Positions 20,509 through 35,096 of a stretch of DNA of 35,464 bases are shown here, in pieces. Source of the DNA: Candidatus Dadabacteria bacterium RIFCSPHIGHO2_12_FULL_53_21 (GTDB taxonomy: Bacteria; Desulfobacterota_D; UBA1144; Nemesobacterales; UBA2774). The stretch lies in NCBI GenBank assembly GCA_001775255.1, contig MFCJ01000073.1, positions 1 to 35,464 of the forward strand. The letters run 5' to 3'. How positions within the stretch are numbered: position 1 is the stretch's first letter; each line of letters begins with the position of its first letter. The notes beneath the pieces are model-generated. The model saw only the letters and a list, made by a program, of their open reading frames with translations. It was not told the DNA's origin and made no database searches. Made by a program: the position numbers and the translations under genes.

Positions 20509-21579
20509 TTAAATTCGGGCGACTCTCGACATGAGCAGATGATCGGCGAGAACGAGGTTGACCATCGCTTCCGCTATAGGCACTGCCCTCGGGCACAGGC
20601 ACGGGTCGTGCCTGCCCTTTACCTTGAGCTCTTTGGGGTTTCCGAATTTATCGACAGTATGCTGAACTTTGGAGATGGACGAGGTGGGCTTGATGGCTAT
20701 TCTCACGACGAGGTCCTCGCCGTTCGTGATTCCGCCGAGCAGGCCTCCCGCGTTATTCGTTTTAAACCTGAGACTTCCCGCTTTGTCCTTATACATCACG
20801 TCGTTCACCTGAGAACCCTTCTTCCTCGACGCTTCGAACCCCATGCCTACTTCGAACCCCCTGATTCCGCCCAGGCTCATGAGAGCCGAAGCGAGGTCGG
20901 CGTCCAGTTTATTGAATACCGGGCTTCCGAGACCCGGCGGAAGTCCTTTCGATATTACCTCCACCGTCCCCCCGACCGAGTCCCCTTCTTTCCTCACCTT
21001 TTCTATGAGCTCTATCATTTCGGCCGCCTTTTCGGCATCGGGGCATCTTACTATGTTTCTCTCTATCTCGTCGAGGTCTATTTTCCGGGCGACGATTTTT
21101 CCGACTTGTCTCACGAAGCCGAATGTCTCGATACCGTTCAGATTGAGTATCTTTTTCGCGACCGCTCCGGCGGCGACCCTTCCGACTGTCTCCCTAGCCG
21201 AAGACCTGCCGCCGCCCCTATAGTCCCTTATTCCGAATTTCGCGTCGTAGGTGTAATCGGCGTGTCCGGGTCGGTAAGTGTCTTTTATATCCTCGTACGC
21301 TTTAGATATAACGTCCTCGTTCCTGACCATGAGCGATATGGGTGTGCCGAGCGTTTTTCCTTCGAATACCCCCGAGAGAATCTCGACGCTGTCCGACTCT
21401 TTCCTCTGTGTGGTTATCTTGCTCTGTCCGGGACGCCTGCGGTCGAGCTCCATCTGTATATCTTCTTTCGATATCTCGAGACCCGCCGGGCATCCGTCGA
21501 TGACGACCCCGAGGGCAAGACCATGGGATTCGCCCCAGGTCGTTATGCGAAACAGTTGTCCGAATGAATTTCCAGGCAT
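20509..21579 (-). CDS. aroC: Chorismate synthase
   Basis: 356 aa. N-terminus MPGNSFGQLFRITTWGESHG, plus GGGRSSARET and RHDPC motifs. Confidence 0.95.
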   Translation of the reverse strand: MPGNSFGQLFRITTWGESHGLALGVVIDGCPAGLEISKEDIQMELDRRRPGQSKITTQRKESDSVEILSGVFEGKTLGTPISLMVRNEDVISKAYEDIKDTYRPGHADYTYDAKFGIRDYRGGGRSSARETVGRVAAGAVAKKILNLNGIETFGFVRQVGKIVARKIDLDEIERNIVRCPDAEKAAEMIELIEKVRKEGDSVGGTVEVISKGLPPGLGSPVFNKLDADLASALMSLGGIRGFEVGMGFEASRKKGSQVNDVMYKDKAGSLRFKTNNAGGLLGGITNGEDLVVRIAIKPTSSISKVQHTVDKFGNPKELKVKGRHDPCLCPRAVPIAEAMVNLVLADHLLMSRVARI

Positions 21580-21634
21580 GGTAAGAGTTTATATTAACGT
21601 GATAATCGCTACAAACAAGGGCAAGTGCGCAAAA

Positions 21635-22618
21635 TCAGAGATAACCGTTTTCCTTAAACCACTTTACGGTGCTTTCTATCGTTTGCTCGAGAGGCCTGGG
21701 GGAGAACCCCAGCTCCCGCACCGCCTTTGAATTATCGAAATACCAGAAGTGCTTCGACCCCTTTACGGAGTCTATGTCCATGGCGACGTAGTTGGGGGCG
21801 GATATGCCGAGTATACGCTCGGCGATATAGGCGCCCATGTAAGCGAGCGGGTAGGGTATCTTCATCCTGGGCCTCGGGATTCCCGTTACCTTCTCTATAA
21901 CCTCGAAGAGCTCTTTGATCGTGATGTTGCGGTTGCTCAGTATGTAGCGCTCCCCGAGCCTGCCCTTCTCGGCCGCGAGGAGGTGACCCAGGGCCACGTC
22001 TTCGGCGTCGACAACGTTAATGCCTCCGTCCGTATATCCCGGAAGCCGCCCCTTGCAGTACCAGAGTATAAATCCGGAGGTCGAGACGTAGACGTCTCCT
22101 GCGCCTATCACTATGGAAGGGTTAACGATTACGAGCGGCAGGCCTTTCCTGAAAAATTTCAGGGCTTCCTCTTCGGCATAATATTTCGATTTTATATACT
22201 GGATGTCAGTGCTTTCGGGGTCAAACGGGGTCTCTTCGTCGGCTACCCCCTTCCCGGGTTTTAACCCTATCGCCGCTACGCTGCTGGTATATACGGCTTT
22301 CTTAACCCCTGCCTCGAGAGCCGCCGTGAATACGTTGTTCGTTCCCTTGACGTTAATATCTTCCATCTTTTTATAGTCGGCCTGCTTGAACGATACGATT
22401 CCCGCCGCGTGGTAAATCGTATCGCAGCCTTCTATCGCTTTCCTGATGGAGTCTATATCGGTTACGTCTCCGTAAACCCTCTCGGCATTTAGATCGTCGA
22501 TATTTATCGTTTTACTGGTCTTTCTGAGGAGTATCCTTAACTTGTCTCCCCTCTCCGCCAGTTTTCTCGCTATGTGAGAGCCCAGGAGGCCGGTCGCCCC
22601 TGTAACCAGTGTAGCCAT
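21635..22618 (-). CDS. NAD(P)-dependent epimerase/dehydratase-family SDR (HpnA / dihydroflavonol-reductase-like)
   Basis: 327 aa. Rossmann motif VTGATGLLGSHI, then YTSS and a YxxxK catalytic pair (YIKSK). Confidence 0.8.
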   Translation of the reverse strand: MATLVTGATGLLGSHIARKLAERGDKLRILLRKTSKTINIDDLNAERVYGDVTDIDSIRKAIEGCDTIYHAAGIVSFKQADYKKMEDINVKGTNNVFTAALEAGVKKAVYTSSVAAIGLKPGKGVADEETPFDPESTDIQYIKSKYYAEEEALKFFRKGLPLVIVNPSIVIGAGDVYVSTSGFILWYCKGRLPGYTDGGINVVDAEDVALGHLLAAEKGRLGERYILSNRNITIKELFEVIEKVTGIPRPRMKIPYPLAYMGAYIAERILGISAPNYVAMDIDSVKGSKHFWYFDNSKAVRELGFSPRPLEQTIESTVKWFKENGYL

Positions 22619-22816
22619 GTGGAATCCTCCCGACGTGCTTAGAGAATTTCATATTACAATAGACACCGCCGAAAAACAATGGACTCGGTATCCCCGGTTA
22701 CATCAATCACGGGGATTCTTGATAATACCGGTTTAGAAACATTGAGAACCATTCATATCGGGGTATATTTTTACTGCCGGGTAGTATATGTGGTTATTAG
22801 TTCAAGAGAGGCCGAG

Positions 22817-23455
22817 ATGGAATTGGAAGAACTCCTTAAAGACAGGGAATACGAAGAGGGCGAGAAGCGTCTCGAAAGGGCATTGGTCATCGCCGAGAGG
22901 GAATGGGAGAAGGTGAGGCTGTCCCTGGGGGAGTGCGGCGATATCGGCGGCTTCGATAAAGAGGACTTCATGATCGGGGTCATTAAAGAGGACGTAATTA
23001 TCAGGGAGCCGCTCATTAGTCCCACGAAGTCTGTGTCCGTATACGCCCCCACGTTTTATCCCATGTACTTTATTAACAACCTCCTCTCTATGGAAGAAAA
23101 ATTCGCTGAACGGGGATATTCGACCTCGGAGGCGCTTTACGTTTTCATCGAGCTTGCGGCCAAGGCTTCGGAGAGGCTCGGCTTGAACGGCACCTTCGCC
23201 ATGGCTTTCGGGGCCGGGTACGGGAGTGTCCGCACCGGGTGGGTCGCCGAAAAGGGCCTCCCTGTCGAGAGAGAAATATTCTTCGATATGTTTTTCAAAA
23301 GCAGGAAAAAGGATTACGACTGGGATTTCTACTGTACACCTGTAAGGGAAAGACTCAGGGAGATACTGAGCAGGTTCCGGGCCTGGCAGGAAGACGAGGA
23401 CCTCTTCCATAGGGAAGTGAAGTCGAAGGCCGTAGTCATACCCATGATGGTTTGA
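22817..23455 (+). CDS. Hypothetical 212-aa protein
   Basis: Start chosen at MELEELLKD (ATG 22817, SD AGAGAGG upstream) rather than the tracked 22679 start. No recognisable motif. Confidence 0.5.
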   Translation: MELEELLKDREYEEGEKRLERALVIAEREWEKVRLSLGECGDIGGFDKEDFMIGVIKEDVIIREPLISPTKSVSVYAPTFYPMYFINNLLSMEEKFAERGYSTSEALYVFIELAAKASERLGLNGTFAMAFGAGYGSVRTGWVAEKGLPVEREIFFDMFFKSRKKDYDWDFYCTPVRERLREILSRFRAWQEDEDLFHREVKSKAVVIPMMV

Positions 23456-23463
23456 AAAGAACC

Positions 23464-23486
23464 GATCCGCCGGATTCCCGCGGATC
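23464..23486. terminator. Hairpin between convergent genes (possible bidirectional terminator)
   Basis: Perfect 7-bp inverted repeat GATCCGC-N9-GCGGATC, between the stop of the 212-aa ORF and the stop of dnaB. There is no clear U-tract. Confidence 0.3.
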
Positions 23487-23516
23487 TCCGCTGCACATCC
23501 TGCTTATGCCGATCAA

Positions 23517-24875
23517 TCACTCGTAATCGTCCGTGTATTCTTCCGAGAGGTCTTTAAAGGTCGGGACCCCCCTCGAGCTGTCGAGGAAGGTGAGTTTCAC
23601 CGTTCCCGTCGGGCCGTTTCTCTGCTTGCCTATAATAAGCTCCGCTATGCCGTCCTTCTCCTCGGGTGTTTTCCTGTAGGCGTCGGCCCTGTGGATGAAC
23701 ATTACGAGGTCTGCGTCCTGCTCTATGGCGCCGCTCTCCCGGAGGTCCGCCAGCTGCGGGCGCCTGTCCGACCGTGACTCTGTCTGTCTGCTGAGCTGTG
23801 ATACCGCGATTACGGGCACGCTCAGCTCCTTCGCGAGCGCTTTAAGAGAGCCGGAAATTTCGGCGATCTCCCGCTCCCTCGTCTCCGTCCTCCTCGTGCC
23901 GCGCATGAGCTGGAGGTAATCGACTATTATTAAATCGAGACCCTTATCCCTCTTCTGCCTCCTGGCCTTGGCGCGTATCTCCATGACGCTTATAGCGGGC
24001 GTATCGTCTATATAAACCTTCGCCCGGCTGAACTCCTCGGCTGCCTTTACGAGCCCTTCCAGGTCTTCGTCCTTGATATAGCCGCTCCTTATGTTCGAAT
24101 AGCTGACGAGTGCTTTCATCGAAAGCAGCCTCAGCATGAGCTGCTCCTTGGTCATTTCGAGCGAGAATATGCCGACCGACGCGTCGCAGTCTATTGCCGC
24201 GTGCGAGGCAATGTTGAGGCAGAGGGAGGTCTTCCCGAGCCCCGGTCTCGCCGCCACTATGACGAGGTCCGCCTTTTGGAGCCCCGAAGTCAGGTAGTCG
24301 AGCTTCTCAAACCCCGTGGGTATCCCCGTGACGAGCTCTTTCCTCGCGTGGAGCATCTCTATTATATCGAGCGCCTTGGCCGCGAGGTCCCTCGAATCGT
24401 AGAAGCTGGGCTTGATTTTATTCTGCGCTATGTCGAGTATCTTGTGCTCTGCCCTGTCTATGAATTCGTCGATATCCGCGACACCTTCGTTACCCTGATG
24501 CGCGATGTCGCTCGCGGCCATCACGAGGTTTCTTATTATCGACTTCTCCTTGACCAGCTTCGCGTAGTAGCTCACGTTCTCCGTCGCGGGCACGATCTCC
24601 GTCAGGTATGTGAGGTAGCTGCTCTCGCCCACTTCCTCGAGCAGGTTCCCGTTCCCCTTCAGGTAATCGAAGAGCGTAAGGAGGTCTATAGGCTTGCTGT
24701 CCCTGTCGAGATCGATCATGGCGTTATATATCTTCCTGTGCGCCTCTTTATAAAAATCTTCGGCGGTCAGTATTTCCATGACCTGGTTTATCGCCGAGCT
24801 CTCTATGAGAATAGCGCCAAGAACGGCCTGTTCCGCTTCCAGATTCTGGGGGAGCTGACGTGTGAGCATCTCCAT
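23517..24875 (-). CDS. dnaB: Replicative DNA helicase DnaB
   Basis: 452 aa. N-terminus PQNLEAEQAVLGAIL, Walker A AARPGLGKTS, then IVDYLQLM and QLSRQTE motifs. Confidence 0.95.
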   Translation of the reverse strand: MEMLTRQLPQNLEAEQAVLGAILIESSAINQVMEILTAEDFYKEAHRKIYNAMIDLDRDSKPIDLLTLFDYLKGNGNLLEEVGESSYLTYLTEIVPATENVSYYAKLVKEKSIIRNLVMAASDIAHQGNEGVADIDEFIDRAEHKILDIAQNKIKPSFYDSRDLAAKALDIIEMLHARKELVTGIPTGFEKLDYLTSGLQKADLVIVAARPGLGKTSLCLNIASHAAIDCDASVGIFSLEMTKEQLMLRLLSMKALVSYSNIRSGYIKDEDLEGLVKAAEEFSRAKVYIDDTPAISVMEIRAKARRQKRDKGLDLIIVDYLQLMRGTRRTETREREIAEISGSLKALAKELSVPVIAVSQLSRQTESRSDRRPQLADLRESGAIEQDADLVMFIHRADAYRKTPEEKDGIAELIIGKQRNGPTGTVKLTFLDSSRGVPTFKDLSEEYTDDYE

Positions 24876-24960
24876 GACTATCTATATTAAATCACTTGTT
24901 CAGATGTTTTCAACTGAGGGGGTTTAAAAAGAAAGCACAAGGGCGGCTTACGGAGCGGGC

Positions 24961-25680
24961 TCAGTATCCGTGGGAGAGTCTTTCGGCAAGGAACCTGTCG
25001 AGTCCGCTGTCTATAATCTTTTTCTGGGCGCCTTCTATGGGATACTCGACCCTCCTGAACTCCGCCTCCCCGCGGTCGTCGTATATCACGAACGATGCCC
25101 GCGGGTCCCTGTCGCGCGGCTGCCCGACGCTTCCGGGATTGACGAGATAGCTCACCCCGTCCAGTAATTGAACCACCTCCGCCCGCGATACGTTAACGCT
25201 GCGGTCTGAGAGAGAATACACAACGCTCACGTGTGTATGGCCGAAGAAGCAGAGGCTCCTATTTTTGAGGAGCGGGAATTCGGGAGCCGCGTCGCGTGCG
25301 GACAAAATATATTTATCCGGGTCCGACGGGGCGCCGTGTACTATCATAAAACCGTCTATCGCATCCTTCTCAGGCAGACTTCTCAGGTATTTCTTGTTCC
25401 CCTCGGTGAGCTTTCCCCTCGTCCAGAGGGCGGCTTCCATCGCGGCCGGGTTGAAGCCTATTGGCTCCGTAATGCCGCACGCTGCTTTATCGTGATTGCC
25501 GATTAATGAGGCGATGTTCCGGCTCTTTATGATTTCGACGCATTCGTTGGGGTTCGCCCCGTACCCCACGATGTCGCCCAGGCAAACAATCCTGTCCGCG
25601 TTACCGCCGTCGATTTCGCCGAGTACGGAAAGGAAGGCCTCCAGGTTCGCATGTATGTCGGAGATAATTGCGTATCTCAA
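24961..25680 (-). CDS. Metallophosphoesterase family protein
   Basis: 239 aa. Motifs SDIHAN, LGDIVGYG, GNHD and GHTH. Confidence 0.8.
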   Translation of the reverse strand: MRYAIISDIHANLEAFLSVLGEIDGGNADRIVCLGDIVGYGANPNECVEIIKSRNIASLIGNHDKAACGITEPIGFNPAAMEAALWTRGKLTEGNKKYLRSLPEKDAIDGFMIVHGAPSDPDKYILSARDAAPEFPLLKNRSLCFFGHTHVSVVYSLSDRSVNVSRAEVVQLLDGVSYLVNPGSVGQPRDRDPRASFVIYDDRGEAEFRRVEYPIEGAQKKIIDSGLDRFLAERLSHGY

Positions 25681-25702
25681 CGTTCGCCTCGGCCCGGAGA
25701 GG

Positions 25703-27037
25703 TTATTCGACCAGCACTATCCCTATGTCCATCACGTTCGTGCCCGTGGGTCCGGTTATGATGAGGTCGCCTAGCTTGTCGAAGAAGTCGTACGAGTTGT
25801 TGAGGGCCAGGTGCTCTCTCGCGCTCACGTTGATGGTCCGGGCCTGGAGCCTGCTCTGCCCGTCGCAGATCGCCCCCGCCGCATCTATCGGGCCGTCTAT
25901 ACCGTCCGTATCGCAGAAGAGCCCCACGATGTCATGCCCTATGATCTCCATACAGAATGACAGGGCGGTTTCCGTGCTCCTGCCCCCTTTTCCCGTACCG
26001 AGGCTGCTTTGGACCGTAACTGTGGTTTCGCCGCCGAATATTACGCAGGACGGTCTCCTGATCGGGTTGCCGAATTTTTCTATATCGAACGCAACCGCCG
26101 CCACTACCTTCGCGACCTCCCTCGCCTCGCCTCTTATCTGCGAAGAAAGCAAGAGTGTGCTATACCCGAGCTCCCCCGCTTTTTTCTCGGCCGCCTTCAG
26201 GGATTTGAAGTTGTTTCCGACGATGATCGTCTGGACGTCTTTCGGGTCGTATTCACCCTCTTTGAGGGTATCGGGAGAGTTCCCGCTCCTCCCCTCCTCG
26301 AGATGTAAGACTACCTGAGGGGGGAGTTTGTGCTCGATGCCGAGGGCCTCTATGACACGCCATGCGTCCTCGAACGTAGTGGGGTCGGGCACCGTGTGTC
26401 CCGACGCTATGGCGTCGAGCCTGTCGCTCACCACATTTGAGAGAATGAGTGTGATGACCTTTGCCGGCAGGGCTTTCTTCAGCAGCCCCCCTCCCTTTAT
26501 CTGCGAGATGTGTTTCCTCACGGCGTTCAGCCCGTATTTGTCCACGCCCGACCTGAGCAGGGTTTCGGTCACCTTCCGCTTGTCATCGAGCGAGATACCG
26601 GGCGAAGGCATTGCAAGCAGCGCGCTGCCGCCCCCTGATATGAGGAATATGACGAGGTCGTTCTCCCCGGCTTTTTCCAGGACCGATACCACTTCCTTCG
26701 CGGCGGTGAGGCTCCTGTCGTCCGGCACGGGGTGGCTCGACAGATAAAATCCGAGCTTCTTGTAAGGGTTCTGCGGCTGGGAGTTCGATACTACTATGCC
26801 TCCCGTAAGCCTGTCCTCGAGCACCTCTTCGACGGCTTCAGCCATGGAGGTTGCGGCCTTGCCGAATGCGACCACATAAATTGACCCGATGTCATTCAGG
26901 TTATATCTCTTGTTGTCTACGGTAAGGACATCCGATTTACGGCTCAGGAATTCGAGGACGCATTTATAAGGATTGGCGGCTTCTACAGCCTCCCAGTACA
27001 TCTTGAGGGCGTTTTCACGCGATTTCTTGAAGTCCAT
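25703..27037 (-). CDS. Glycerate 2-kinase (MOFRL / hydroxypyruvate-reductase-like TtuD family)
   Basis: 444 aa. The overall pattern matches this family: an N-terminal domain with AFGKAA, GGGSALL in the middle, and a C-terminal GGETTV...GKGGR...DTDGIDG block. Confidence 0.8.
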   Translation of the reverse strand: MDFKKSRENALKMYWEAVEAANPYKCVLEFLSRKSDVLTVDNKRYNLNDIGSIYVVAFGKAATSMAEAVEEVLEDRLTGGIVVSNSQPQNPYKKLGFYLSSHPVPDDRSLTAAKEVVSVLEKAGENDLVIFLISGGGSALLAMPSPGISLDDKRKVTETLLRSGVDKYGLNAVRKHISQIKGGGLLKKALPAKVITLILSNVVSDRLDAIASGHTVPDPTTFEDAWRVIEALGIEHKLPPQVVLHLEEGRSGNSPDTLKEGEYDPKDVQTIIVGNNFKSLKAAEKKAGELGYSTLLLSSQIRGEAREVAKVVAAVAFDIEKFGNPIRRPSCVIFGGETTVTVQSSLGTGKGGRSTETALSFCMEIIGHDIVGLFCDTDGIDGPIDAAGAICDGQSRLQARTINVSAREHLALNNSYDFFDKLGDLIITGPTGTNVMDIGIVLVE

Positions 27038-27092
27038 TTCGTTATATTATCTACTGCGGGGAATATCCCGATTCCGACATCCCCGATCGAAT

Positions 27093-27566
27093 TCAGCCTT
27101 TCCGCAGCTCTTCTATCAGCCTGTCGACCTTTTCTTTAGTCAGGTTCTCTTCGAGCTTGTCGTCGACGAGCATCACGGGCGCCGTTCCGCACGACGCCAG
27201 GCACTCCGCTTCCATCAGGGTGATTTTTCCGTCGGTCGTCGTCCCGCCGGTTTTCACGCCGAGCCGTTCGCACATGTGGTGCTCTACGTGCTCCGCCCCT
27301 CTCAAAGCGCAGGACAGGGTGCGGCAGAGCCAGATCACGTGCTCTCCAACCGGTTTTCTAAAGAACATAGTATAGAATGTGGCCACGTTCTGAACGCTCG
27401 AAGGCGGGATGCCGAGTATCCCGGCCGCCTCTTCCATCGATTCGTTCGAAAGGTAGCCGAATTCGTTCTGTATTACTCTCAAAACCGGTATGAGGGCGGA
27501 TTGTCTGGTTTCGGACCCGGATACTATCAAATTTATTCTTTCTCTAAGCGGTTCTGGAAACGGCAT
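27093..27566 (-). CDS. NuoE/HoxE-like thioredoxin-fold [2Fe-2S] protein
   Basis: The Cys pattern CRTLSC...CLASCGTAP and the LIPVLRVIQ block are typical of the 24-kDa subunit family. Start chosen at MPFPEPL (ATG 27566). The tracked ORF extends to 27674. Confidence 0.75.
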   Translation of the reverse strand: MPFPEPLRERINLIVSGSETRQSALIPVLRVIQNEFGYLSNESMEEAAGILGIPPSSVQNVATFYTMFFRKPVGEHVIWLCRTLSCALRGAEHVEHHMCERLGVKTGGTTTDGKITLMEAECLASCGTAPVMLVDDKLEENLTKEKVDRLIEELRKG

Positions 27567-27807
27567 GTCTTCACTGCTCCGAATTAGCTCCGATAATGTT
27601 ACATGGTTTGAACCTCTTCGCAAGAAAAATCTGTCCCCTGCGGTATTCCGCTCATAGCGTCCGGTATTTTTCACGCTGAGCGCGCCCCGCGGGGGATGTG
27701 AGCCATGCCGGAGTTAGGGCGGGTGTGGAAATCCGGCGAGTTTTGGTTAAATTAAAGAGCTTATTTTGAGGGCTTATAATTCTCGCTGGAGTCCGGGAGG
27801 TAATGAG

Positions 27808-28266
27808 ATGCTCAGTATGTTTAAAAAGTTTTTTGAAGGCTCGGGCGCTGATAATAAAGGGGAGGATAAAGACGCCAGACTGAGGACCGCCACGTGCGTC
27901 CTGTTGCTCGAAGCCGCGACGGCCGACGATTCTTTTTCCGACATCGAGCAGAAGAAGGTCGTCGAAATATTGAAATCGAGGTTCGGGATGACCGACGAAG
28001 CCGTAAAGGATCTCATCGACGAATCGAAGAGGGCGAGGCAGAACGAGGCCGACATCTGGTACTTTACTAATCTCATAAATCAAAACCTGTCTAACGAAGA
28101 AAAATACGATATGATGAAAGAGGTCTGGGAGGTAATTTATTCAGACGGCTCTCTGGGTGAGTTTGAAAACTACGTGGCGCAGAAACTATACCGCATGCTG
28201 AATATAGATCATTCAAAATTCATAGAGCTCAAATTGAAGGTTAAAAACGAGATTCAGGGTGCGTAA
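27808..28266 (+). CDS. TerB-family (tellurite-resistance-like) protein
   Basis: Start at MLSMFKKFF (ATG 27808, SD GGGAGG 7 nt upstream). Two TerB-like repeats: LLLEAATADDSFSDIEQKKV and MMKEVWEVIYSDGSLGEFE. Confidence 0.7.
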   Translation: MLSMFKKFFEGSGADNKGEDKDARLRTATCVLLLEAATADDSFSDIEQKKVVEILKSRFGMTDEAVKDLIDESKRARQNEADIWYFTNLINQNLSNEEKYDMMKEVWEVIYSDGSLGEFENYVAQKLYRMLNIDHSKFIELKLKVKNEIQGA

Positions 28267-28298
28267 GCGCATGCCCGGGCAGATAAGTATGGCCGGTA

Positions 28299-28341
28299 CC
28301 CCGACGTTGAGGCTCTAGGCGGCTCGGGGTTAATTTTTTTT
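28299..28341 (+). terminator. Candidate Rho-independent terminator after the TerB-like gene
   Basis: CCCCGA (28299-28304) pairs with TCGGGG (28324-28329), followed by TTAATTTTTTTT. Confidence 0.5.
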
Positions 28342-28421
28342 AATCCGCACAACTTAATCCGCTTCCTAAACCTTAAAGTGACGGATAAAATAGAATATGG
28401 ATAATTCATTCGGAGCTGGCT

Positions 28422-29711
28422 GTGAGTCGATCTAACAACGGAAGACGAGTGGCCATAGTCCACGGACTAAGAACCCCGTTCGTAAAGTGCGGGACGCTCT
28501 TCAGGAATCTCACCTCCCTTGATCTGGGTAAGATAGCGGCTGTCGAGCTGCTTAACAGGACTGAAATAGTTCCGAAGGATATAGACAAGGTATTCATCGG
28601 CAGCGTTATACCGTCCGTCAAAACCCCTAACCTGGCCAGGGAAATCGCGCTCGGTTCGGGCATCCCGGCGACTGTGCCGGCTTTCACCGTGACGAGCGCG
28701 TGCGCATCGGCGATGCAGGCATTCACGAGCGCGGTCGACAGCATCCTGTCCGGGGACTCCGATATAGTGTTGGCGGGCGGAGCCGATACTGTGCACGACT
28801 CGCCTTATCTGGGCGGAAGGGGGACGAGGTCGAGGCTGTATGACTCAATTAATCTAATCGAGAAGGCCATGCCTCTTTTGAAGATGGGCGCAGGCGAGTC
28901 GGCCTTTTCGCTGCCCCTGTTGCCGGAGCGGTATGCCGGATACACACTCGGGGAGTCCGCCGAGAAGCTCGCCCGGAGATATCAGATAGGCAGGGACGAG
29001 CAGGACTCGTTCGCGGTAAGGAGCCACACGCTCGCCTCCAGGGCTCAGACGGAGGGTATATTCGAGGACGAAATAATTCATACGTTCGTGCCGCCTGATT
29101 TTACCGAAATCGTTTCCGCCGATAACAGCGTCAGATATGACATAAGTGTCGAAGCGCTTTCGGGACTTCCTCCCCTTTTCGATAAAGAGTTCGGGACGGT
29201 CACGGACGGCAACTCGGCACCCCTTACGGACGGGGCGTCGGTAATACTGCTCATGTCCGAGGACAAAGCGAGGGCGCTCGGGTATAAACCCATAGCGTAT
29301 GTAAGGTCATACGCCTACGCCGCCGTCGATCCGTCGGATGAGCTGCTGATGGGTCCGGCATACTCGACCCCGGCTGCGCTCGAGCGTGCCGGCATCGGGC
29401 TCGACGAGATAGACCTGGTCGAAATTCACGAACCGTTCTCCTCGCAGGTGATCTCTTACGTGAGGGCGCTCGACTCCAAGGGCTTTGCCAAGGAGAAGCT
29501 AGGCCGGAGCCAGCCCGTGGGGGAGGTCGACATGGAGAAGCTCAACATTTCAGGGGGCTCGATCGCGATCGGACACACGCTCGGCGCAACCGGCGCGAGG
29601 ATAATAATGACGCTCGCCTACAGGATGTCCAAGAGGAAAGGGAATTTCGGGCTCGTCAGCCTCGCTTCGGCGGGCGGCCTCGGGGTCTCGATCGTGCTTG
29701 AAAAGGAATAA
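28422..29711 (+). CDS. FadI-like 3-ketoacyl-CoA thiolase homologue (C-terminal catalytic Cys motif not conserved)
   Basis: 429 aa, GTG start. RVAIVHGLRTPF, nucleophile motif TSACASA, HEPF and GGSIAIGHTLGATG are present. The expected C-terminal Cys motif instead reads LASAGGLG. Confidence 0.85.
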   Translation: MSRSNNGRRVAIVHGLRTPFVKCGTLFRNLTSLDLGKIAAVELLNRTEIVPKDIDKVFIGSVIPSVKTPNLAREIALGSGIPATVPAFTVTSACASAMQAFTSAVDSILSGDSDIVLAGGADTVHDSPYLGGRGTRSRLYDSINLIEKAMPLLKMGAGESAFSLPLLPERYAGYTLGESAEKLARRYQIGRDEQDSFAVRSHTLASRAQTEGIFEDEIIHTFVPPDFTEIVSADNSVRYDISVEALSGLPPLFDKEFGTVTDGNSAPLTDGASVILLMSEDKARALGYKPIAYVRSYAYAAVDPSDELLMGPAYSTPAALERAGIGLDEIDLVEIHEPFSSQVISYVRALDSKGFAKEKLGRSQPVGEVDMEKLNISGGSIAIGHTLGATGARIIMTLAYRMSKRKGNFGLVSLASAGGLGVSIVLEKE

Positions 29712-31873
29712 TGGATATGAGCAGCATTTCCTACACTATAGATAATACGGGCATAGCCGTGGTGACTATAAACACCCCCGGCAGCGCCGTGAACGTTCTC
29801 GATCAGGAGAGTTTCCTGTCTCTCGAAGAATTCCTCAACAAGATCGACAGGGAGTTCGACATGCTCGAGAGCAACGACGAGATAAGGGCCGTCGTTATCG
29901 TAAGCTCCAAGGACGGAAGTTTCATAAACGGGGCCGACCCAGGGGAATACCTCAATTTCACCCTCGCCGACGAAGGCAGGTCGTACAGCCTCAAGGCGCA
30001 GGAAATATCCGAGAAGATAGAGAATTCGAGGGCTCCGTTTGTGGCGGCGATAGGGGGGGCATGTCTCGGTCTCGGCCTGGAGCTGGCCATTGCGTGCAAA
30101 TACAGGGTCGGGGTCAATAACAAGAAAACGGCGCTCGGTCTTAACCAGATCGATTTCGGCATTATCCCCTGCGCCGGGGGGGTGCTGAGGCTCGCGAAGC
30201 TCATAGGGACTAAAGAAACGCTCGACCTGATACTGAGCGCGGAGGTCCTCGATGCCGATCATTCGAAGCAGAAGGGGCTCCTCGATGAGGTCGTGCCGGA
30301 GGAATATCTCCTGAGCATAGCCAAGAAACGCGCGGCCGAATTATCGAGCAAGGAGTTCAAGCCGAGGCGTTTTCGTTTCGGCGGTATGACGAACGTTCTG
30401 ATAAAAGAGAATCCCGTATCCAGAAGGATGTATTTCGACAAAGCAAAGAAGGAGATAAAAGAGAGCCGGGAGTTATACCTTACGGCATCGAGAATGGCGA
30501 TCGAGGCCCTTGAGATCGGCGTCGCGAGCTTCAACAGGGGACTCCACGCGGAATCGGTTTATTTCGGCGAGCTCGCGGTGACGGGATACTCGAGGCAGTT
30601 GATAAGATCGAGCATAGCGATAGATGAGGTCAGGAACGACATCAGGTTTACGAAGGCCGGCCATAAAACAAGGAAGATTGCCGAGAAGATCGCGCTCGTG
30701 GGAGAAGAGACCCACGGGGCGGGAATCGCCTGCCTCGCCGCCGAGAACGGAATCCTCGTAAGGATGAAGAGCAGGGACCTTGCCGGCGCCGCGAAAAATA
30801 TGAAGGCGTGCTTTGATTTCTTTATGGAGAAGGTTGCGAATCACGAAACAGCCGGGCTCGGGGCTGAAAAAAAGCTCGACCTCATAAGCGCGTCCTCCGA
30901 CTACACGGGTTTCAAACGGGCGGATATCGTTATTGAAACGGCGGGGGAGGACCTGGATGTAAAACGCGGGATACTTAAAGACGTGGAGTCCCTTATGGGC
31001 GGGGATTATATATACGTTTCGAATTCATTTGCCCTCCCTGTGGAGTTAATCGCGGGCGCATCGAAGAGGCCCGACAGGGTTGTGGGCATGCGGATCCCCG
31101 GGTCTGTCCACGAGACCGAGCTCATGGAGGTCGCGGTCGCAGAAGGCACGTCTCAGGAAACGGTGGCCGAATTGATCGAATTCGCCAAAAGTCTCGGGAA
31201 AATCCCCCTCGTGGTCAAAAACAAGGCCGGGTTTTATACGACCCGCATTCAGCTGGCATATTTTAACGAAGCGCTTCACCTCCTTGAGGAGGGGATAGGG
31301 GCACAGGACATAGAGGACGCTATGATGCAGTTCGGGTTTCCCGAAGGGCCCCTGAGCGCAATGGACGAAATAGGGCTCGACCTGATCCAAAAGGGCTCTC
31401 AAATCGTCTTCAGGCAGTCGGCCGAGAGGTTGAAGCCCCTCTCGCTGCTCGACAGGATGATAGAAGACGGCAGGACCGGGGTCGGGAGCGGCAGGGGATT
31501 CTACAGATACGGACGGGATGAAAAAAGACTGGACAGGTCTCTCCATAAACTGTTGGCGCTCGAAGAAGGGGATTCGGAAAGCATCTCGCAGGAATACATA
31601 CAGGACCGCCTCGTGCTCGCGATGGTGAATGAGGCGATGCTCTGTCTCCAGGACGAGGTCATAGGGAGCGCCAAGGAAGGGGATGTGGGCGCCCTTCTGG
31701 GTCTCGGCTTCCCGACTTACAGGGGAGGCCCGTTCAGATATGTAGACTCCGCAGGGGCCGGCGAGATATTAAAGAAGCTCCATAACCTGAGCGTAAGATA
31801 CGGCACGCGATATACGCCCCCTGTTATATTGAAGAACGCAGCGGTGGGCGGAAATAAATTTTACGAAAACTGA
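29711..31873 (+). CDS. FadJ/FadB-like fatty-acid-oxidation alpha-subunit homologue (enoyl-CoA hydratase + 3-hydroxyacyl-CoA dehydrogenase folds; several signature residues substituted)
   Basis: 720 aa. The ATG overlaps the upstream stop (TAATG). Crotonase block AAIGGACLGLGLELA. HADH-like blocks VSNSFALP, GMRIPGSVHETELMEV and KAGFYTTR. C-terminal GFPTYRGGPFRY. Confidence 0.85.
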   Translation: MDMSSISYTIDNTGIAVVTINTPGSAVNVLDQESFLSLEEFLNKIDREFDMLESNDEIRAVVIVSSKDGSFINGADPGEYLNFTLADEGRSYSLKAQEISEKIENSRAPFVAAIGGACLGLGLELAIACKYRVGVNNKKTALGLNQIDFGIIPCAGGVLRLAKLIGTKETLDLILSAEVLDADHSKQKGLLDEVVPEEYLLSIAKKRAAELSSKEFKPRRFRFGGMTNVLIKENPVSRRMYFDKAKKEIKESRELYLTASRMAIEALEIGVASFNRGLHAESVYFGELAVTGYSRQLIRSSIAIDEVRNDIRFTKAGHKTRKIAEKIALVGEETHGAGIACLAAENGILVRMKSRDLAGAAKNMKACFDFFMEKVANHETAGLGAEKKLDLISASSDYTGFKRADIVIETAGEDLDVKRGILKDVESLMGGDYIYVSNSFALPVELIAGASKRPDRVVGMRIPGSVHETELMEVAVAEGTSQETVAELIEFAKSLGKIPLVVKNKAGFYTTRIQLAYFNEALHLLEEGIGAQDIEDAMMQFGFPEGPLSAMDEIGLDLIQKGSQIVFRQSAERLKPLSLLDRMIEDGRTGVGSGRGFYRYGRDEKRLDRSLHKLLALEEGDSESISQEYIQDRLVLAMVNEAMLCLQDEVIGSAKEGDVGALLGLGFPTYRGGPFRYVDSAGAGEILKKLHNLSVRYGTRYTPPVILKNAAVGGNKFYEN

Positions 31874-31958
31874 TACACTGGTTATCATTTTTCAACTTCT
31901 GACCTTGACAGATTTCCCGGTATGAAAACCGGGGGCCTGTAGTTATAATTTAACTCTT

Positions 31959-32813
31959 ATGAGTTCGGATAAAATGAAAAAAGGCAGTTATCTAAAACCC
32001 GTTATCCTGGCGCTCTCCGCGCTTGGAATCATTCTTTCCCTATACCTCACATATCTCCATTTTACCGAGAGCCGGGCTGCGTTCTGCGCCGCTGGGACGG
32101 ATTGCGATACGGTCAGGCAGAGCGGCTTCTCCACCATCATGGGAATTCCCATAGCAGCTGTAGGCGTGGCGGGATATTCGGTCATACTCATCGTGTTCCT
32201 GATAAGCATGAAAAAACGGACAAAGTGGCTCCTTCTTTACATACTCGTCCTGGCCGGCTTCGTATTTTCCGCGTACCTCACATACATCGAGCTCTTCGTT
32301 ATCAAAGCGATATGCATGTACTGCATCTTTTCAGCGGTACTGATGACGATTATTTTTATTGCCCTGATCAGGGCCAAATCCGAATACCACCCCAAACTGT
32401 CCGCGTCTTATATCGGGGTCTTGAGCCTTGCCGTCTCCGCTACAGTCATCCTCGGCGCGGCGCTTGTACAGGCTGAAAAGTTAGGCGCGTCCAACTCCCT
32501 TACGTCCGGCATTTCTCAGCCCGCCGGTTCCTTCCAGACCGGACTTGCGATGCACCTGGCAGACCACGGGGCGGTAATGTACGGCTCGTTCAAGTGCCCG
32601 CACTGCAATCAGCAGAAACAAATGTTCGGCGACGCGTTCAGATATATCAAATACGTCGAATGCAACCCGAAGGGGGAAAATGCCAATCCTTCCCTCTGCT
32701 TCGCAAAGGGTATAATGAACTACCCGACGTGGGAGATCGACGGAAAGTTTTACGAGGGCGCCATGCCGCTCGAACAGCTCTCCAAGATTACCGGATACGA
32801 CGGCAAACTCTAG
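31959..32813 (+). CDS. VKOR (vitamin K epoxide reductase)-family membrane protein fused to a thioredoxin-like domain
   Basis: 284 aa. Loop cysteines CAAGTDC, membrane CxxC (CMYC), then a soluble C-terminal domain with CPHC. The start could also be the ATG at 31974. Confidence 0.8.
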   Translation: MSSDKMKKGSYLKPVILALSALGIILSLYLTYLHFTESRAAFCAAGTDCDTVRQSGFSTIMGIPIAAVGVAGYSVILIVFLISMKKRTKWLLLYILVLAGFVFSAYLTYIELFVIKAICMYCIFSAVLMTIIFIALIRAKSEYHPKLSASYIGVLSLAVSATVILGAALVQAEKLGASNSLTSGISQPAGSFQTGLAMHLADHGAVMYGSFKCPHCNQQKQMFGDAFRYIKYVECNPKGENANPSLCFAKGIMNYPTWEIDGKFYEGAMPLEQLSKITGYDGKL

Positions 32814-32885
32814 ATTTAACTTGCCTATCTCATTAAGAAACTCTCCCCTTATCGCTTCGAAAACCTCGTCCGCAGGAAAATATTA

Positions 32886-32932
32886 GTTTAGATTTGCGCC
32901 CAAAGATGTTATTATTATTCATAAATCTAAAC
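32886..32932. repeat. Perfect 10-bp inverted repeat GTTTAGATTT-N27-AAATCTAAAC immediately upstream of the DUF883-like gene
   Basis: Arms at 32886-32895 and 32923-32932. The right arm ends 3 nt before the SD GGAAGG. Confidence 0.8.
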
Positions 32933-32948
32933 GTGGAAGGTGATTCAA

Positions 32949-33242
32949 ATGGGTCAGGAAAACCTTGGGCAGGATTTGGAAGCACTCCGGGAAGACGTTA
33001 CCAAACTGAGGTCCGATCTGTCACAGCTCGCAAAGTCTCTGCTCGATAAAGGGAAGATCGAGACGGATACGGCCAAGGACAGGGTGATGGAGGAGCTTAT
33101 GTCGAACCTCCGCTCGGCGCGCGATAAAAGCAACGAGACGGTCGAGACAGTCGAGCATAAAATCCAGGAAAAGCCTTTAATGAGCCTCCTTATCGCTTTT
33201 CTCGTAGGGCTTGTTCTGGGAAAACTTTTCGAGAGAAGGTAG
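32949..33242 (+). CDS. YqjD/ElaB-like (DUF883) C-tail-anchored membrane protein
   Basis: Charged coiled N-terminal part (LEALREDVTKLRSDLSQLAKSLL) and a single C-terminal TM (PLMSLLIAFLVGLVLGKLF). ATG at 32949 is 8 nt after GGAAGG. The tracked ORF starts at the GTG at 32940. Confidence 0.7.
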   Translation: MGQENLGQDLEALREDVTKLRSDLSQLAKSLLDKGKIETDTAKDRVMEELMSNLRSARDKSNETVETVEHKIQEKPLMSLLIAFLVGLVLGKLFERR

Positions 33243-33253
33243 GTTCCCGCGAT

Positions 33254-33724
33254 TTGAAGGACATAATAAATATAATTTTAAGCTCGGTTAAACCGGATTA
33301 CAGGGCCCTGAGGTCGATACTCTTCAGAGCGCTCGTTGTCCTGCTTGTCCTCTGCGTATCGTCCGTGATAGCCGTAATCGGGCTCGGTTTTTTTGTATGG
33401 TCTCTATACCTCTACCTTGAGACCCTGTTTAGTCCCTATTGGGCAGCGCTCTTGAGCGGGGCGGGGGCAATAGCGCTCGCGGCGGCGATCGTATTGGTCG
33501 CGCTTTTGTTTACAGGTTTTTTCAAGAAGTCGGGGAGAGTCAAACCAAAACCCGAACATGCGGGTACCGGCTTCTCATCCGATCCCATGGGGCTTGGCTA
33601 CAAGTATCCCCTCGAATCGGGCCTTACTGCTGCAATTGCGGGATTCATAGTCGGCTCATCGGCCGATGCGCCCAAGACACTGACGGAATTCATGACGCTG
33701 CTTAAAGAGAGCGGGCTGAAATAG
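33254..33724 (+). CDS. YqjE-like (DUF1469 / holin-X-like) two-TM membrane protein
   Basis: TTG start 11 nt after the previous stop. Two long hydrophobic helices. Its position directly after a DUF883 gene mirrors the E. coli yqjD-yqjE arrangement. The family assignment rests on context and topology only. Confidence 0.5.
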   Translation: MKDIINIILSSVKPDYRALRSILFRALVVLLVLCVSSVIAVIGLGFFVWSLYLYLETLFSPYWAALLSGAGAIALAAAIVLVALLFTGFFKKSGRVKPKPEHAGTGFSSDPMGLGYKYPLESGLTAAIAGFIVGSSADAPKTLTEFMTLLKESGLK

Positions 33725-33748
33725 CACCCTCTATCCGCTGATTTTCAT

Positions 33749-34441
33749 TTATCCCTGCCTGCATTCTTCTACAAACGATTCGAATATACGGTCGGCTAAT
33801 TCCGATTGTTCGCGCTCGGGGTGCCATTGTATCCCCACTATGTACCGGGGCTCCCGGGACTCGATCCCTTCCACGATCCCGTCGGGGGCCGTTGCCGAGA
33901 CCCTTAAGCCCCTCCCTATCTCTTTCACCGCCTGATGGTGGTAGCTATTTACATGAAATTTGCTCGATCCGGACATTTTATGGAGCAGCGTGCCGTCTTC
34001 TATGAGTATATCGTGAACGGCCCCTTTTTCGTGCGGCATCGCGTCGGGCAGGAAGGAGGAGATGTCCTGGTAGAGGGACCCGCCGAAGAAGACATTAAGG
34101 AGCTGCATCCCGCCGCATATGCCGAGGACGGGGATCCTTCTCTCGCTGGATTCTTTTAACACGATGAACTCGGTCTCCGTCCTTTCGATGCTCATGGGTC
34201 TCAGCTTCGGATGAGGCTCCTCGTTATAGAATTTGGGGTCCATGTCCCTCGACCCCGGAAGCAGCAGGCCGTCAATACGGGAAACGGTTTCCTTTAGGAG
34301 CCCGGGGCTTTCCGGTATCGATGGTATCAGTATCGGGATCCCCCCGGCCTTAGCCACTGCGCGGGCATACGCGTCCTCTATGACGAAACTGCCGTCCTTG
34401 ATGTCGGTCGTTATGCCTATTACGGGTCTCTTACGGTCCAT
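33749..34441 (-). CDS. Class-I glutamine amidotransferase, peptidase C26 (PuuD / gamma-glutamyl-GABA hydrolase-like)
   Basis: 230 aa. Nucleophile elbow GICGGMQLLN and IQWHPE His/Glu motif. Confidence 0.85.
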   Translation of the reverse strand: MDRKRPVIGITTDIKDGSFVIEDAYARAVAKAGGIPILIPSIPESPGLLKETVSRIDGLLLPGSRDMDPKFYNEEPHPKLRPMSIERTETEFIVLKESSERRIPVLGICGGMQLLNVFFGGSLYQDISSFLPDAMPHEKGAVHDILIEDGTLLHKMSGSSKFHVNSYHHQAVKEIGRGLRVSATAPDGIVEGIESREPRYIVGIQWHPEREQSELADRIFESFVEECRQG

Positions 34442-34484
34442 GCGTTCCCCGGAAATGACGAAACGTGTTTCGAGCTAAAGATAT

Positions 34485-35096
34485 TTGTCCCGGCAAAAAA
34501 AGCAAGACCGCCTGAGCGGCGCCGGAAAATTTGTCTGTGGGAAATTCTTTTCTGCATTATTCTTATCTCCGGTATCCGGAGCGGCCTCGATAATGTTGAA
34601 GGGCATATATTTCGTTTTGATCTCCACTCTTTCTGCGTTCCTGTTTTATGTTTTCTTCGGGACCGCGCTCGGATACGAGCGCCCGTTTTTCATCCTCCCG
34701 CTTTTTCCTGTCTTTCTGGGGATTCACGTAATTCTCAGTATCGTGGTTTATGCGGTGTCGTTACGCGGAGAATCGAGGAAAATGAGGGCGGGGATGGCCT
34801 CGAAGGTCAGGGGAACCGTTTTCATTCTTGTCTCCGCGCTTATACTGTCGGCCCTTTTTCCCGCAAGCTCCGTGGCCGGTCTCTATCCCGTCCGGATGGC
34901 GGCGTTCCACCTCCTCATACTATTCTACGCCGGCATATCTTTGGGGGCGGTGAGCCTTTCGGGGGCACTCTTCCTCTGGAGGAACGGGATTTACCTGTCC
35001 CTGCTCAACAAATATGTATTCACATTTGCGGTGCTTATATCCCTTGGTATATCTTTTATCACGGTGTATATGTTCGGGCTGCTGCCTGTCAGTTAA
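34485..35096 (+). CDS. Hypothetical polytopic membrane protein
   Basis: About 6 hydrophobic helices and no recognisable motif. The start is uncertain: TTG at 34485 or ATG at 34593. Confidence 0.5.
   Translation: MSRQKKQDRLSGAGKFVCGKFFSALFLSPVSGAASIMLKGIYFVLISTLSAFLFYVFFGTALGYERPFFILPLFPVFLGIHVILSIVVYAVSLRGESRKMRAGMASKVRGTVFILVSALILSALFPASSVAGLYPVRMAAFHLLILFYAGISLGAVSLSGALFLWRNGIYLSLLNKYVFTFAVLISLGISFITVYMFGLLPVS

Follow-up and report, generated by a model that had tools for sequence, protein, structure and literature searches.

A lineage-wide trifunctional-enzyme-like gene pair of Candidatus Dadabacteria with predicted loss of its canonical catalytic sites

The gene pair and its active sites

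Contig MFCJ01000073.1 of Candidatus Dadabacteria bacterium RIFCSPHIGHO2_12_FULL_53_21 (assembly GCA_001775255.1), which we analysed over its full 35,464 nucleotides and refer to as the window, carries at positions 28,422 to 31,873 two coupled genes whose products resemble the beta and alpha subunits of a beta-oxidation trifunctional enzyme (TFE). Alignment to solved homologues indicates that each of the thiolase, hydratase and dehydrogenase sites is missing one or more of the residues essential to characterised homologues. We consider it probable that all three canonical activities have been disabled while selection still maintains the pair, and for the whole of the evidence we lean towards a repurposed complex, which would no longer run beta-oxidation and would be kept by selection for another role. 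The pair comprises the following.

28422..29711, + strand: FadI/HADHB-type thiolase (beta subunit), 429 amino acids, with no general acid/base Cys (Pfam, NCBIfam and structure-guided HMMER alignment)
29711..31873, + strand: FadJ/HADHA-type alpha subunit, 720 amino acids, with hydratase and dehydrogenase sites predicted to be disabled (Pfam, NCBIfam, HMMER and fold prediction)
29709..29713, + strand: TAATG stop/start overlap of the thiolase and alpha genes (translational coupling), with AAGGAA directly 5' at 29703-29708

A sequence-only reading of this DNA had described two full-length, TAATG-coupled open reading frames (ORFs) of the thiolase and hydratase/dehydrogenase families, and ORF coordinates and Pfam bear this out. 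The thiolase ORF matches Thiolase_N (E 3e-64) and Thiolase_C (E 2e-36), and the alpha ORF matches ECH_1, 3HCDH_N and 3HCDH, in the order enoyl-CoA hydratase (ECH) domain, linker, 3HCDH_N, 3HCDH. The top NCBIfam models are FadI for the former and FadJ for the latter. The thiolase passes the subfamily cut-off of TIGR01930 (396 vs 240) and misses both FadI equivalog cut-offs (NF006516, 473.5 vs 560; TIGR02446, 392 vs 711); both FadJ equivalog cut-offs are likewise missed by the alpha subunit (NF008363, 587 vs 869; TIGR02440, 507 vs 968). A ketoacyl-synt Pfam match in the thiolase is a single local stretch of 39 residues around the nucleophile.

Catalytic residues were placed by HMMER alignment to solved structures, replacing the by-eye alignment of the earlier reading: the thiolase to E. 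coli FadI (8bnu_A) and human HADHB (6dv2_A), with E about 1e-102 to 1e-104, and the alpha subunit to FadJ (8bnu_C) and HADHA (6dv2_G), with E of 1e-124 and 1e-117. The substitutions fell where that reading had put them. It had called the thiolase nucleophile Cys94 and the HEPF and GHT motifs present and the C-terminal acid/base Cys absent, with Ala415 in its stead; the first hydratase Glu kept as Glu124 and the second replaced by Gln146, for which the codon was also checked; and, in the dehydrogenase, GxGxxG reading G331-E-E-T-H-G, the catalytic His replaced by Arg461, SNTS by SNSF, and the partner Glu473 kept. Each of these calls agrees with the structure-based alignment. A further call, that an Asn had given way to Thr511, holds as a statement of sequence and fails as a loss, since Thr and Ser are common at this position in active enzymes.

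The thiolase active site is laid out as follows.

28701..28703, + strand: codon of Cys94, the nucleophile, in the CxS fingerprint (TSACAS), retained by alignment and invariant in 57 thiolases that lack the base Cys
29427..29429, + strand: codon of His336, in HEPF, the equivalent of the HEAF/NEAF fingerprint, retained
29574..29576, + strand: codon of His385, in GHT, the equivalent of the GHP fingerprint, retained
29664..29666, + strand: codon GCT of Ala415, at the general acid/base Cys position of the CxG fingerprint

The thiolase base is Cys378 of the CxG fingerprint in the Z. ramigera enzyme (PMC3406046), and the catalytic residue named for the thiolase of MtTFE is Cys-beta92 (PMC11301753). 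In the window thiolase, the acid/base Cys of the FadI/HADHB motif ..(T/A)ACAAGG.. falls on Ala415, and the Pro of the GHP fingerprint is replaced by Thr. Mutants of the Z. ramigera enzyme at C378 reportedly still form the acetyl-enzyme. Across the 57 Cys-less relatives, whose pairwise identity runs down to 52%, position 415 is Ala, Pro or Ser, while every sequence has Cys94, His336 and His385, and 56 have Asn264. As invariant positions make up only 19.6% of these thiolases overall, the chance expectation for the four named positions is about 0.0015. The same clade has fixed R401 and K428 (both 100%), carries K or R at 357, and differs from its Cys-containing relatives at about 20 positions that those relatives conserve, many in the loop domain. 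A relocated base Cys, as in the HDCF motif of SCP2-thiolases, was considered and rejected, as the corresponding motif is HEPF or HEAF and holds no Cys.

In the hydratase domain of the alpha subunit, three features stand out.

30080..30082, + strand: codon of Glu124, the first (water-activating) hydratase Glu, retained in all lineage members
30146..30148, + strand: codon CAG of Gln146, at the second hydratase Glu position (C2 proton donor); in the clade, Q 35, G 18, E 2, D 1
29846..29866, + strand: clade-specific insertion of seven residues (D46-L52), with Asp50 invariant and Met51 95% conserved in the clade

In rat ECH, Glu144 activates water and Glu164 protonates C2 (PMC13126182), and the hydratase glutamates of MtTFE are Glu-alpha119 and Glu-alpha141 (PMC11301753). 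Known enoyl-CoA isomerases have a single catalytic Glu at the position equivalent to Glu164 or to Gly172 (PMC13126182). The second of these corresponds to alpha Cys154 (30170-30172, + strand), which is Cys in most clade members (GLIPCAGG), varies among C, S, F and A within the clade, and is Cys or Ser in canonical sisters too. A Delta3,Delta2-enoyl-CoA isomerase was rejected on this account, the required positions being Gln146 and Cys154, both variable within the clade. For E. coli FadB, Glu139 is said not to be the base for the isomerase activity. Glu124, together with the G74 and G122 segments that form the crotonase oxyanion-hole framework for the thioester, is invariant throughout.

The NAD and dehydrogenase sites of the alpha subunit are the most altered.

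30701..30718, + strand: degenerate Rossmann motif G331-E-E-T-H-G336, in which the second Gly is Glu; the position varies in the clade
30770..30772, + strand: codon of Ser354, which stands where 98% of canonical relatives have the Asp that binds the NAD ribose at the end of beta-2
31019..31030, + strand: SNSF (437-440) in place of SNTS, with the active-site Ser replaced by Phe440
31091..31093, + strand: codon of Arg461, at the dehydrogenase catalytic His; in the clade, R 44, N 10, K 2
31127..31129, + strand: codon of Glu473, partner of the lost His, retained (as in 150 of 150 family representatives)
31241..31243, + strand: codon of Thr511 (GFYTTR), no loss, Thr or Ser being common in active TFE alpha subunits

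Thr511 is the native residue of active human HADHA, and among 150 diverse representatives the position is Asn in 78, Thr in 46 and Ser in 23. MtTFE has Ser at the equivalent position, and its dehydrogenase residues are His-alpha462 and Ser-alpha441 (PMC11301753). As the Rossmann motif has lost its second Gly and the NAD ribose its binding Asp, normal NAD binding by the alpha subunit is predicted to be precluded. The sequence-only reading had overlooked further losses: besides Ser354 at the NAD-ribose Asp, these are His115, Pro145, Tyr257, Met335, Thr439, Ser464, Pro470, Arg591, Arg652 and Arg655, all ten of which mark positions more than 92% invariant in canonical proteins.

The residues that persist in both subunits invite a rival reading, which we regard as unlikely, namely neofunctionalisation to a complete new reaction, for example a KAS-like decarboxylative Claisen condensation by the thiolase, which would use malonyl-CoA and need no base, or an isomerase-like or hydrolase-like reaction carried in the hydratase domain by one glutamate, Glu124, with the oxyanion hole intact. 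The Cys-His-His/Asn set of the thiolase resembles that of condensing enzymes, which need no general base, and the fixed basic residues R401, K428 and K/R357 of the Cys-less clade, like the invariance of Glu124 and of the G74 and G122 segments, would suit such a change. The sites themselves argue the other way, since residue 415 drifts among Ser, Pro and Ala and residue 146 among Gln, Gly, Glu and Asp, with no new chemistry fixed, and the positions at which isomerases carry their Glu are here Gln146 and the variable Cys154 (PMC13126182).

Lineage, order of loss and constraint

A search of 5.8 billion proteins placed the alpha homologues in a discrete group at 46-97% identity to the window protein, followed by a drop to about 38%. 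Column-by-column tabulation of this clade found degenerate sites in all 56 of its alpha proteins, so that the check proposed by the earlier reading, whether orthologues share the substitutions, came out in its favour. The nearest relatives outside the clade (P0053 and P0055-P0059, 42-46% identity), and all farther ones, carry PE, GAGxMG, Asp, SNTS and HFF. Within the clade, the lost positions vary: Q/G/E/D at 146, E/S/G/N/T/K at 333, G/C/S/A at 354 and R/N/K at 461. It follows from this variation that nothing new has been fixed at them. Compensating catalytic residues were also sought and rejected, as no fixed Cys, Glu or His lies near the lost sites and the replacements drift. What the clade has gained is a set of ECH and linker residues that never vary within it (D50, R90, S106, F110, M262, H279, V283 and Y284), of which R90 stands where most canonical relatives (47 of 64) have Glu.

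The closest genomes are metagenome-assembled genomes (MAGs) labelled Candidatus Dadabacteria or Thermodesulfobacteriota. In every member examined, the neighbourhood AroC-epimerase-DnaB-(Metallophos)-MOFRL-NuoE-like-TerB-thiolase-alpha-VKOR...C26-ABC-F-M48 is kept, and in the window the pair is flanked by the following.

27766..28266, + strand: TerB-domain gene, conserved upstream neighbour, also found near canonical sister operons
28378..28405, + strand: promoter-like site GTGACG-16-GATAAT, directly 5' of the thiolase start, from a consensus scan only
31959..32813, + strand: VKOR-family gene, 284 amino acids, downstream neighbour kept throughout the lineage, with a promoter-like site at 31922-31949

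Synteny holds where the alpha subunit is only 47% (L011) or 35% (L021) identical to that of the window, with DnaB at 78-81%. The latter, on a 2.67 Mb contig (L021:4692-8163; ENA ERZ25072999), is the deepest syntenic orthologue pair, with both ORFs intact; its identity to the window is 39% for the thiolase, 35% for alpha and 78% for DnaB, so that its thiolase appears accelerated, identity being about 60% elsewhere at similar DnaB divergence. In the closest canonical relatives, L016 and L017, TerB likewise lies near the thiolase-alpha pair. Because synteny persists down to 35% alpha identity and TerB accompanies the canonical pairs, the degenerate pair is best read as the in-place descendant of a normal fadIJ operon, an orthologue rather than a divergent paralogue. 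Adjacency of the alpha gene to a FadI-type thiolase and the TAATG coupling are, as properties of the genes, conserved among orthologues.

The order of some 15-20 genes from AroC to SAICAR synthase (window 20509-35096) is shared by L004, L006, L011, L012, L014, L015, L018 and L021, with DnaB 78-85% identical, and this wholesale synteny means that gene adjacency says little about function in the lineage. The TerB/VKOR neighbourhood was accordingly set aside as a functional clue, the entire block of about 20 genes being equally conserved. Within the 35-kb window, a search for an acyl-CoA dehydrogenase or any further beta-oxidation gene found none. The promoter consensus scan returned 8 sites in the region against 3.4 expected; those 5' of the thiolase and of VKOR fit a bicistronic unit and faintly hint that the two genes may have their own promoter.

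A neighbour-joining tree of concatenated alpha and beta subunits (1076 columns, with 100% bootstrap on key nodes) puts L016 and L017, the canonical relatives, outside. The first split inside separates L011, L014 and L018 from the rest, and these three combine a degenerate alpha subunit, presumed dead, with a fully canonical thiolase. L015, then L012, then L004 with L006 branch next, followed by the window group, and the acid/base Cys is absent from all of these thiolases. The codon at the base position runs in the same order, from Cys (TGT/TGC) through Ser (TCT) and Pro (CCT/CCC) to Ala (GCT), one nucleotide per step. As branching order and residue series agree, alpha would have degenerated first, lineage-wide, and the thiolase base would have been lost once, later, in a sub-clade, the position having drifted since. 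The simultaneous loss in three sites that the sequence-only reading had envisaged is thereby refuted: the losses were sequential. That alpha was already dead, on this evidence, in branches with a fully canonical thiolase also speaks against the new-reaction reading set out above.

Both genes are under strong purifying selection. By the Nei-Gojobori method, the ratio of non-synonymous to synonymous substitution rates (dN/dS) between the window and four orthologues lies at 0.079-0.099 in the thiolase and at 0.085-0.097 in alpha, with synonymous divergence (dS) up to >1. The corresponding values are about 0.04 for DnaB, 0.11-0.19 for VKOR and 0.14-0.33 for a neighbouring membrane protein, so that the pair, at about 0.09, is as constrained as most of its neighbours or more so. 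Among the three closer orthologues, each of the five alpha domains is constrained (dN/dS 0.02-0.13), the dead NAD domain included, with the C-terminal domain tightest; only these closer pairs were used per domain, since dS is saturated in the comparison with L012, where the thiolase loop and C-terminal domains gave no valid value. The two marks of a pseudoenzyme, loss of essential ancestral residues and purifying selection, are thus both found in the pair, inactivity itself being predicted.

AlphaFold2 modelled the alpha subunit from a 43-sequence alignment with a pLDDT of 88.2 and a pTM of 0.87, and the best Foldseek matches of the model are E. coli anaerobic TFE-alpha (6ysv_A, TM 0.91) and human TFP-alpha (6dv2_G, TM 0.90); the alpha architecture is predicted to be intact. 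Decay into pseudogenes, or an artefact of assembly or sequencing, might be suspected from the many catalytic-site substitutions and from one long-read MAG (L005:11487-11593, CAVWAZ010000030.1), in which the alpha orthologue is split over two frames with an overlapping stretch, probably an assembly indel. This explanation is effectively refuted by 429-aa and 720-aa ORFs that are uninterrupted across dozens of MAGs obtained independently in different projects, by an identical thiolase protein on 5 contigs, by a dN/dS of about 0.09 at dS up to >1, and by the confident structure prediction. The earlier proposal of a selected, non-canonical TFE-like complex rather than a decaying pseudogene is upheld by the same dN/dS values, by the predicted fold and by the shared substitutions.

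Constraint within alpha has also been redistributed. The share of positions at least 95% conserved was compared between the degenerate clade and canonical relatives at similar divergence (median pairwise identity 0.52 vs 0.54).

NAD-binding domain: degenerate 12%, canonical 23%
HAD (3-hydroxyacyl-CoA dehydrogenase) C-terminal domain: degenerate 21%, canonical 31%
ECH domain: degenerate 26%, canonical 21%
Linker: degenerate 23%, canonical 13%
Domain E: degenerate 31%, canonical 23%

In alpha, then, the NAD domain has lost constraint and the hydratase, linker and C-terminal domains have gained it. The new-reaction reading benefits from this shift: conservation of the ECH, linker and E domains exceeds that in canonical FadJ, and the new invariant residues, R90 included, cluster in this part of the protein. 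The shift bears differently on the supposition that the pair is an ordinary beta-oxidation TFE with substitute residues, perhaps of low activity or with another cofactor. Such an enzyme would account for the full architecture, the gene pairing and translational coupling that are kept, and for FadI and FadJ as best family matches. We nevertheless judge it very improbable: conservation of the NAD domain is half the canonical value at equal divergence, at least 10 residues that are >92% invariant in canonical relatives have been lost together, among them the NAD determinants, dehydrogenase His and Ser, hydratase Glu and thiolase base, the replacements are variable, and the model scores lie far below the FadI and FadJ equivalog cut-offs.

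Such losses are rare in the wider family. An exhaustive HMMER search covered 1.84 billion cluster representatives, and its best 150 matches, tabulated as diverse family representatives, are overwhelmingly canonical: the first Glu is conserved in 149, the second in 141, Gly333 in 147, Asp or Glu at 354 in 145, His461 in 142 and Glu473 in 150. Thirteen of them deviate at one or more scored sites, 5 of these within the supergroup of the window, and some 4-5% of the 150, outside the window lineage, have losses in hydratase, NAD or dehydrogenase sites. Unrelated FadJ/FadB-like deviants (P0321, P0326, P0350, P0257, P0297, P0310, P0365 and P0376) show the second Glu replaced by Ala, Asp or His, the His by Arg or Asn, or Asp354 by Ala or Gly. 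One of these, P0321 (L020:6001-8184), combines Glu to Ala with His to Arg, has no adjacent thiolase, and lies beside genes for inositol-1-phosphate synthase and a CDP-alcohol phosphatidyltransferase. Dead-HAD alpha subunits, as predicted from these residues, arise repeatedly but rarely, and the phenomenon may extend beyond the window lineage. A change of His to Arg or Asn recurs among the deviants, with Glu473 kept each time, which suggests structural compensation of the buried Glu473.

Possible roles of the retained complex

Taken together, the evidence points to an alpha subunit without catalysis and a thiolase capable of partial catalysis at most. In the repurposed complex that we favour, alpha would serve as a structural and acyl-CoA-binding partner, with its thioester oxyanion-hole framework and Glu124 intact and with residues near the acyl pocket loop that have become invariant. 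The thiolase would be the sole subunit with residual chemistry: Cys94 may form an acyl-enzyme without the base and pass the acyl group to a thiol or other acceptor, Claisen or retro-Claisen chemistry presumably not being retained in the window clade. The whole would then be an acyl-CoA-holding or acyl-transferring assembly and no chain-shortening enzyme. The specific acyl-transfer mechanism is offered tentatively, as one possibility for the role retained.

Several observations weigh against the repurposed complex, and some favour one in which nothing catalytic is left. The member L019:3-3035 (Logan SRR35364754) has a degenerate alpha subunit followed by VKOR, with its thiolase cut by the contig end; that thiolase carries Ser at the base position, with a Cys two residues upstream (LVCMSASGG), and has Gln for the HEAF His. 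The thiolase of L021 is without both catalytic cysteines, SACAS reading GSSLS and the base position Ser, so that the role retained there cannot be Cys-dependent catalysis, which favours a fully non-catalytic role across the lineage; the same loss counts against a complete new reaction. The invariance of Cys94 and of the Asn and His residues could be partly structural, and the TerB and VKOR neighbours offer no clue to a pathway.

Some of these points give substance to the alternative that both subunits are pseudoenzymes with a structural, membrane-organising, ligand-sensing or partner-stabilising role, in which the thiolase residues would persist structurally or for lack of time. It would explain the graded decay across syntenic pairs with intact ORFs, from an intact thiolase (L011, L014, L018) through loss of the base and then of the HEAF His (L019) to loss of both cysteines (L021); the variability of the lost sites within the clade is in keeping with it, as is the recurrent His to Arg or Asn change with Glu473 always kept. 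We find it somewhat doubtful for the window clade. In the 57 Cys-less thiolases, Cys94, His336 and His385 are constant and Asn264 is replaced a single time, a pattern with little probability by chance; the low dN/dS also tells against it, and the faster evolution of the L021 thiolase suggests that constraint was released there and still acts in the window clade. For this clade we therefore retain the repurposed complex as the preferred reading, with the qualifications given above.

A last proposal grants the TFE architecture a separate function, independent of beta-oxidation, such as HADHA-like, acyl-CoA-dependent lipid acyltransfer or remodelling, or a membrane or acyl-CoA scaffold, and supposes that this is the sole function left in Dadabacteria. 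We think it quite unlikely. A HADHA-type function could stay under selection after the canonical sites die. Were the proposal true, the lineage would be a natural separation-of-function mutant, which could reveal where and how a 'fourth activity' of TFE works, and the recurrent dead-HAD alphas with His to Arg or Asn in unrelated lineages would mark a repeated route to the same role.

Some features of the window lie outside this argument. The VKOR-family protein has its VKOR domain in residues 15-135 only, and its C-terminal half, with a CPHC motif, looks thioredoxin-like (fused). On the - strand, 17190-19949 encodes a 919-aa protein of unusual architecture, in which a class I/II aminotransferase domain is fused to PilZ on its N-terminal side and to a GNAT acetyltransferase on its C-terminal side. 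An RF-2-like ORF at 7199-8243 (- strand; PCRF and RF-1 domains) begins at PCRF profile position 58, and a CTTTGAC motif at 8237-8243 on the same strand, upstream of the listed ORF, fits a classical prfB +1 programmed frameshift site.

Relation to known systems

Trifunctional enzymes are textbook substrate-channelling machines, with medical relevance through HADHA/HADHB deficiencies and, in MtTFE, as a drug target. In the literature on beta-oxidation in Dadabacteria, on thiolase and hydratase pseudoenzymes, and on the catalytic residues of FadI/FadJ, we found no description of a catalytically disabled trifunctional enzyme, nor of the dead-HAD alpha subunits seen in unrelated lineages. The window pair would accordingly represent a lineage-wide, selected and catalytically disabled TFE complex for which no published counterpart was found, and a natural experiment on what the scaffold does beyond catalysis, be it partner stabilisation, acyl-CoA handling or a fourth activity.

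Partial catalytic loss has precedents in the thiolase superfamily. The retro-aldolases Ltp2 and Sal and the trypanosomatid/mycobacterial thiolase-like proteins TLP1 and SLP are members with such losses, which act, or are believed to act, alongside a hydratase-related partner (PMC12329534; PMC3406046). In Sal, Ltp2 and TLP1, unlike the window thiolase, the nucleophile Cys is Gly, and Sal keeps its proton-donor Cys in YDCY; the window thiolase displays the reverse pattern, with the nucleophile kept and the proton donor lost. Ltp2, Sal and the TLPs belong to SCP2-thiolase-like clades with DUF35 or MaoC-type hydratase partners, none of FadJ type, and their motifs are absent from the window pair. 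A thiolase-like retro-aldolase of the Ltp2/Sal kind was considered and rejected for the window on these grounds: the nucleophile is kept, the motif is HEPF rather than YD(H/C)(F/Y), and the partner is FadJ-like rather than DUF35. The likeness to KAS-type decarboxylating condensing enzymes (Cys-His-His/Cys-His-Asn) lies in a set, Cys94, His336, His385 and Asn264, that needs no Cys base. In sequence and fingerprints the window thiolase is clearly of FadI type.

For the alpha subunit, a precedent is human TFP-alpha (HADHA), which has monolysocardiolipin acyltransferase activity (PMC3494688; PMC6789043). This is an instance of acyl-CoA-dependent TFE-alpha function outside the three reactions. HADHA keeps all canonical sites. 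Its acyltransferase activity is the most interesting candidate for a remaining function, as a lead only.

The closest systems remain E. coli FadI/FadJ (anEcTFE; 8bnu, 8bnr, 6ysv) and human HADHB/HADHA (6dv2, 5zqz). Like them, the window pair is a thiolase-first two-gene unit with the same domain order, in which the nucleophile Cys, the HEAF-type His, the GH His, the first hydratase Glu and the HAD partner Glu are present. Unlike them, it has replaced the thiolase base Cys, the second hydratase Glu, the second Rossmann Gly, the NAD-ribose Asp and the HAD His and Ser, and its clade has acquired the 7-residue insertion and new invariant ECH and linker residues. As judged from these residues, the pair is FadI/FadJ by descent and fold, yet fails the defining catalytic features of both families, and for that reason it should be neither annotated as FadI/FadJ nor credited with beta-oxidation. 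Public records call these genes FadI/FadJ or '3-hydroxyacyl-CoA dehydrogenase', from which metabolic reconstructions of Dadabacteria would wrongly infer beta-oxidation where the canonical FadI/FadJ and HADHB/HADHA sites have been replaced.

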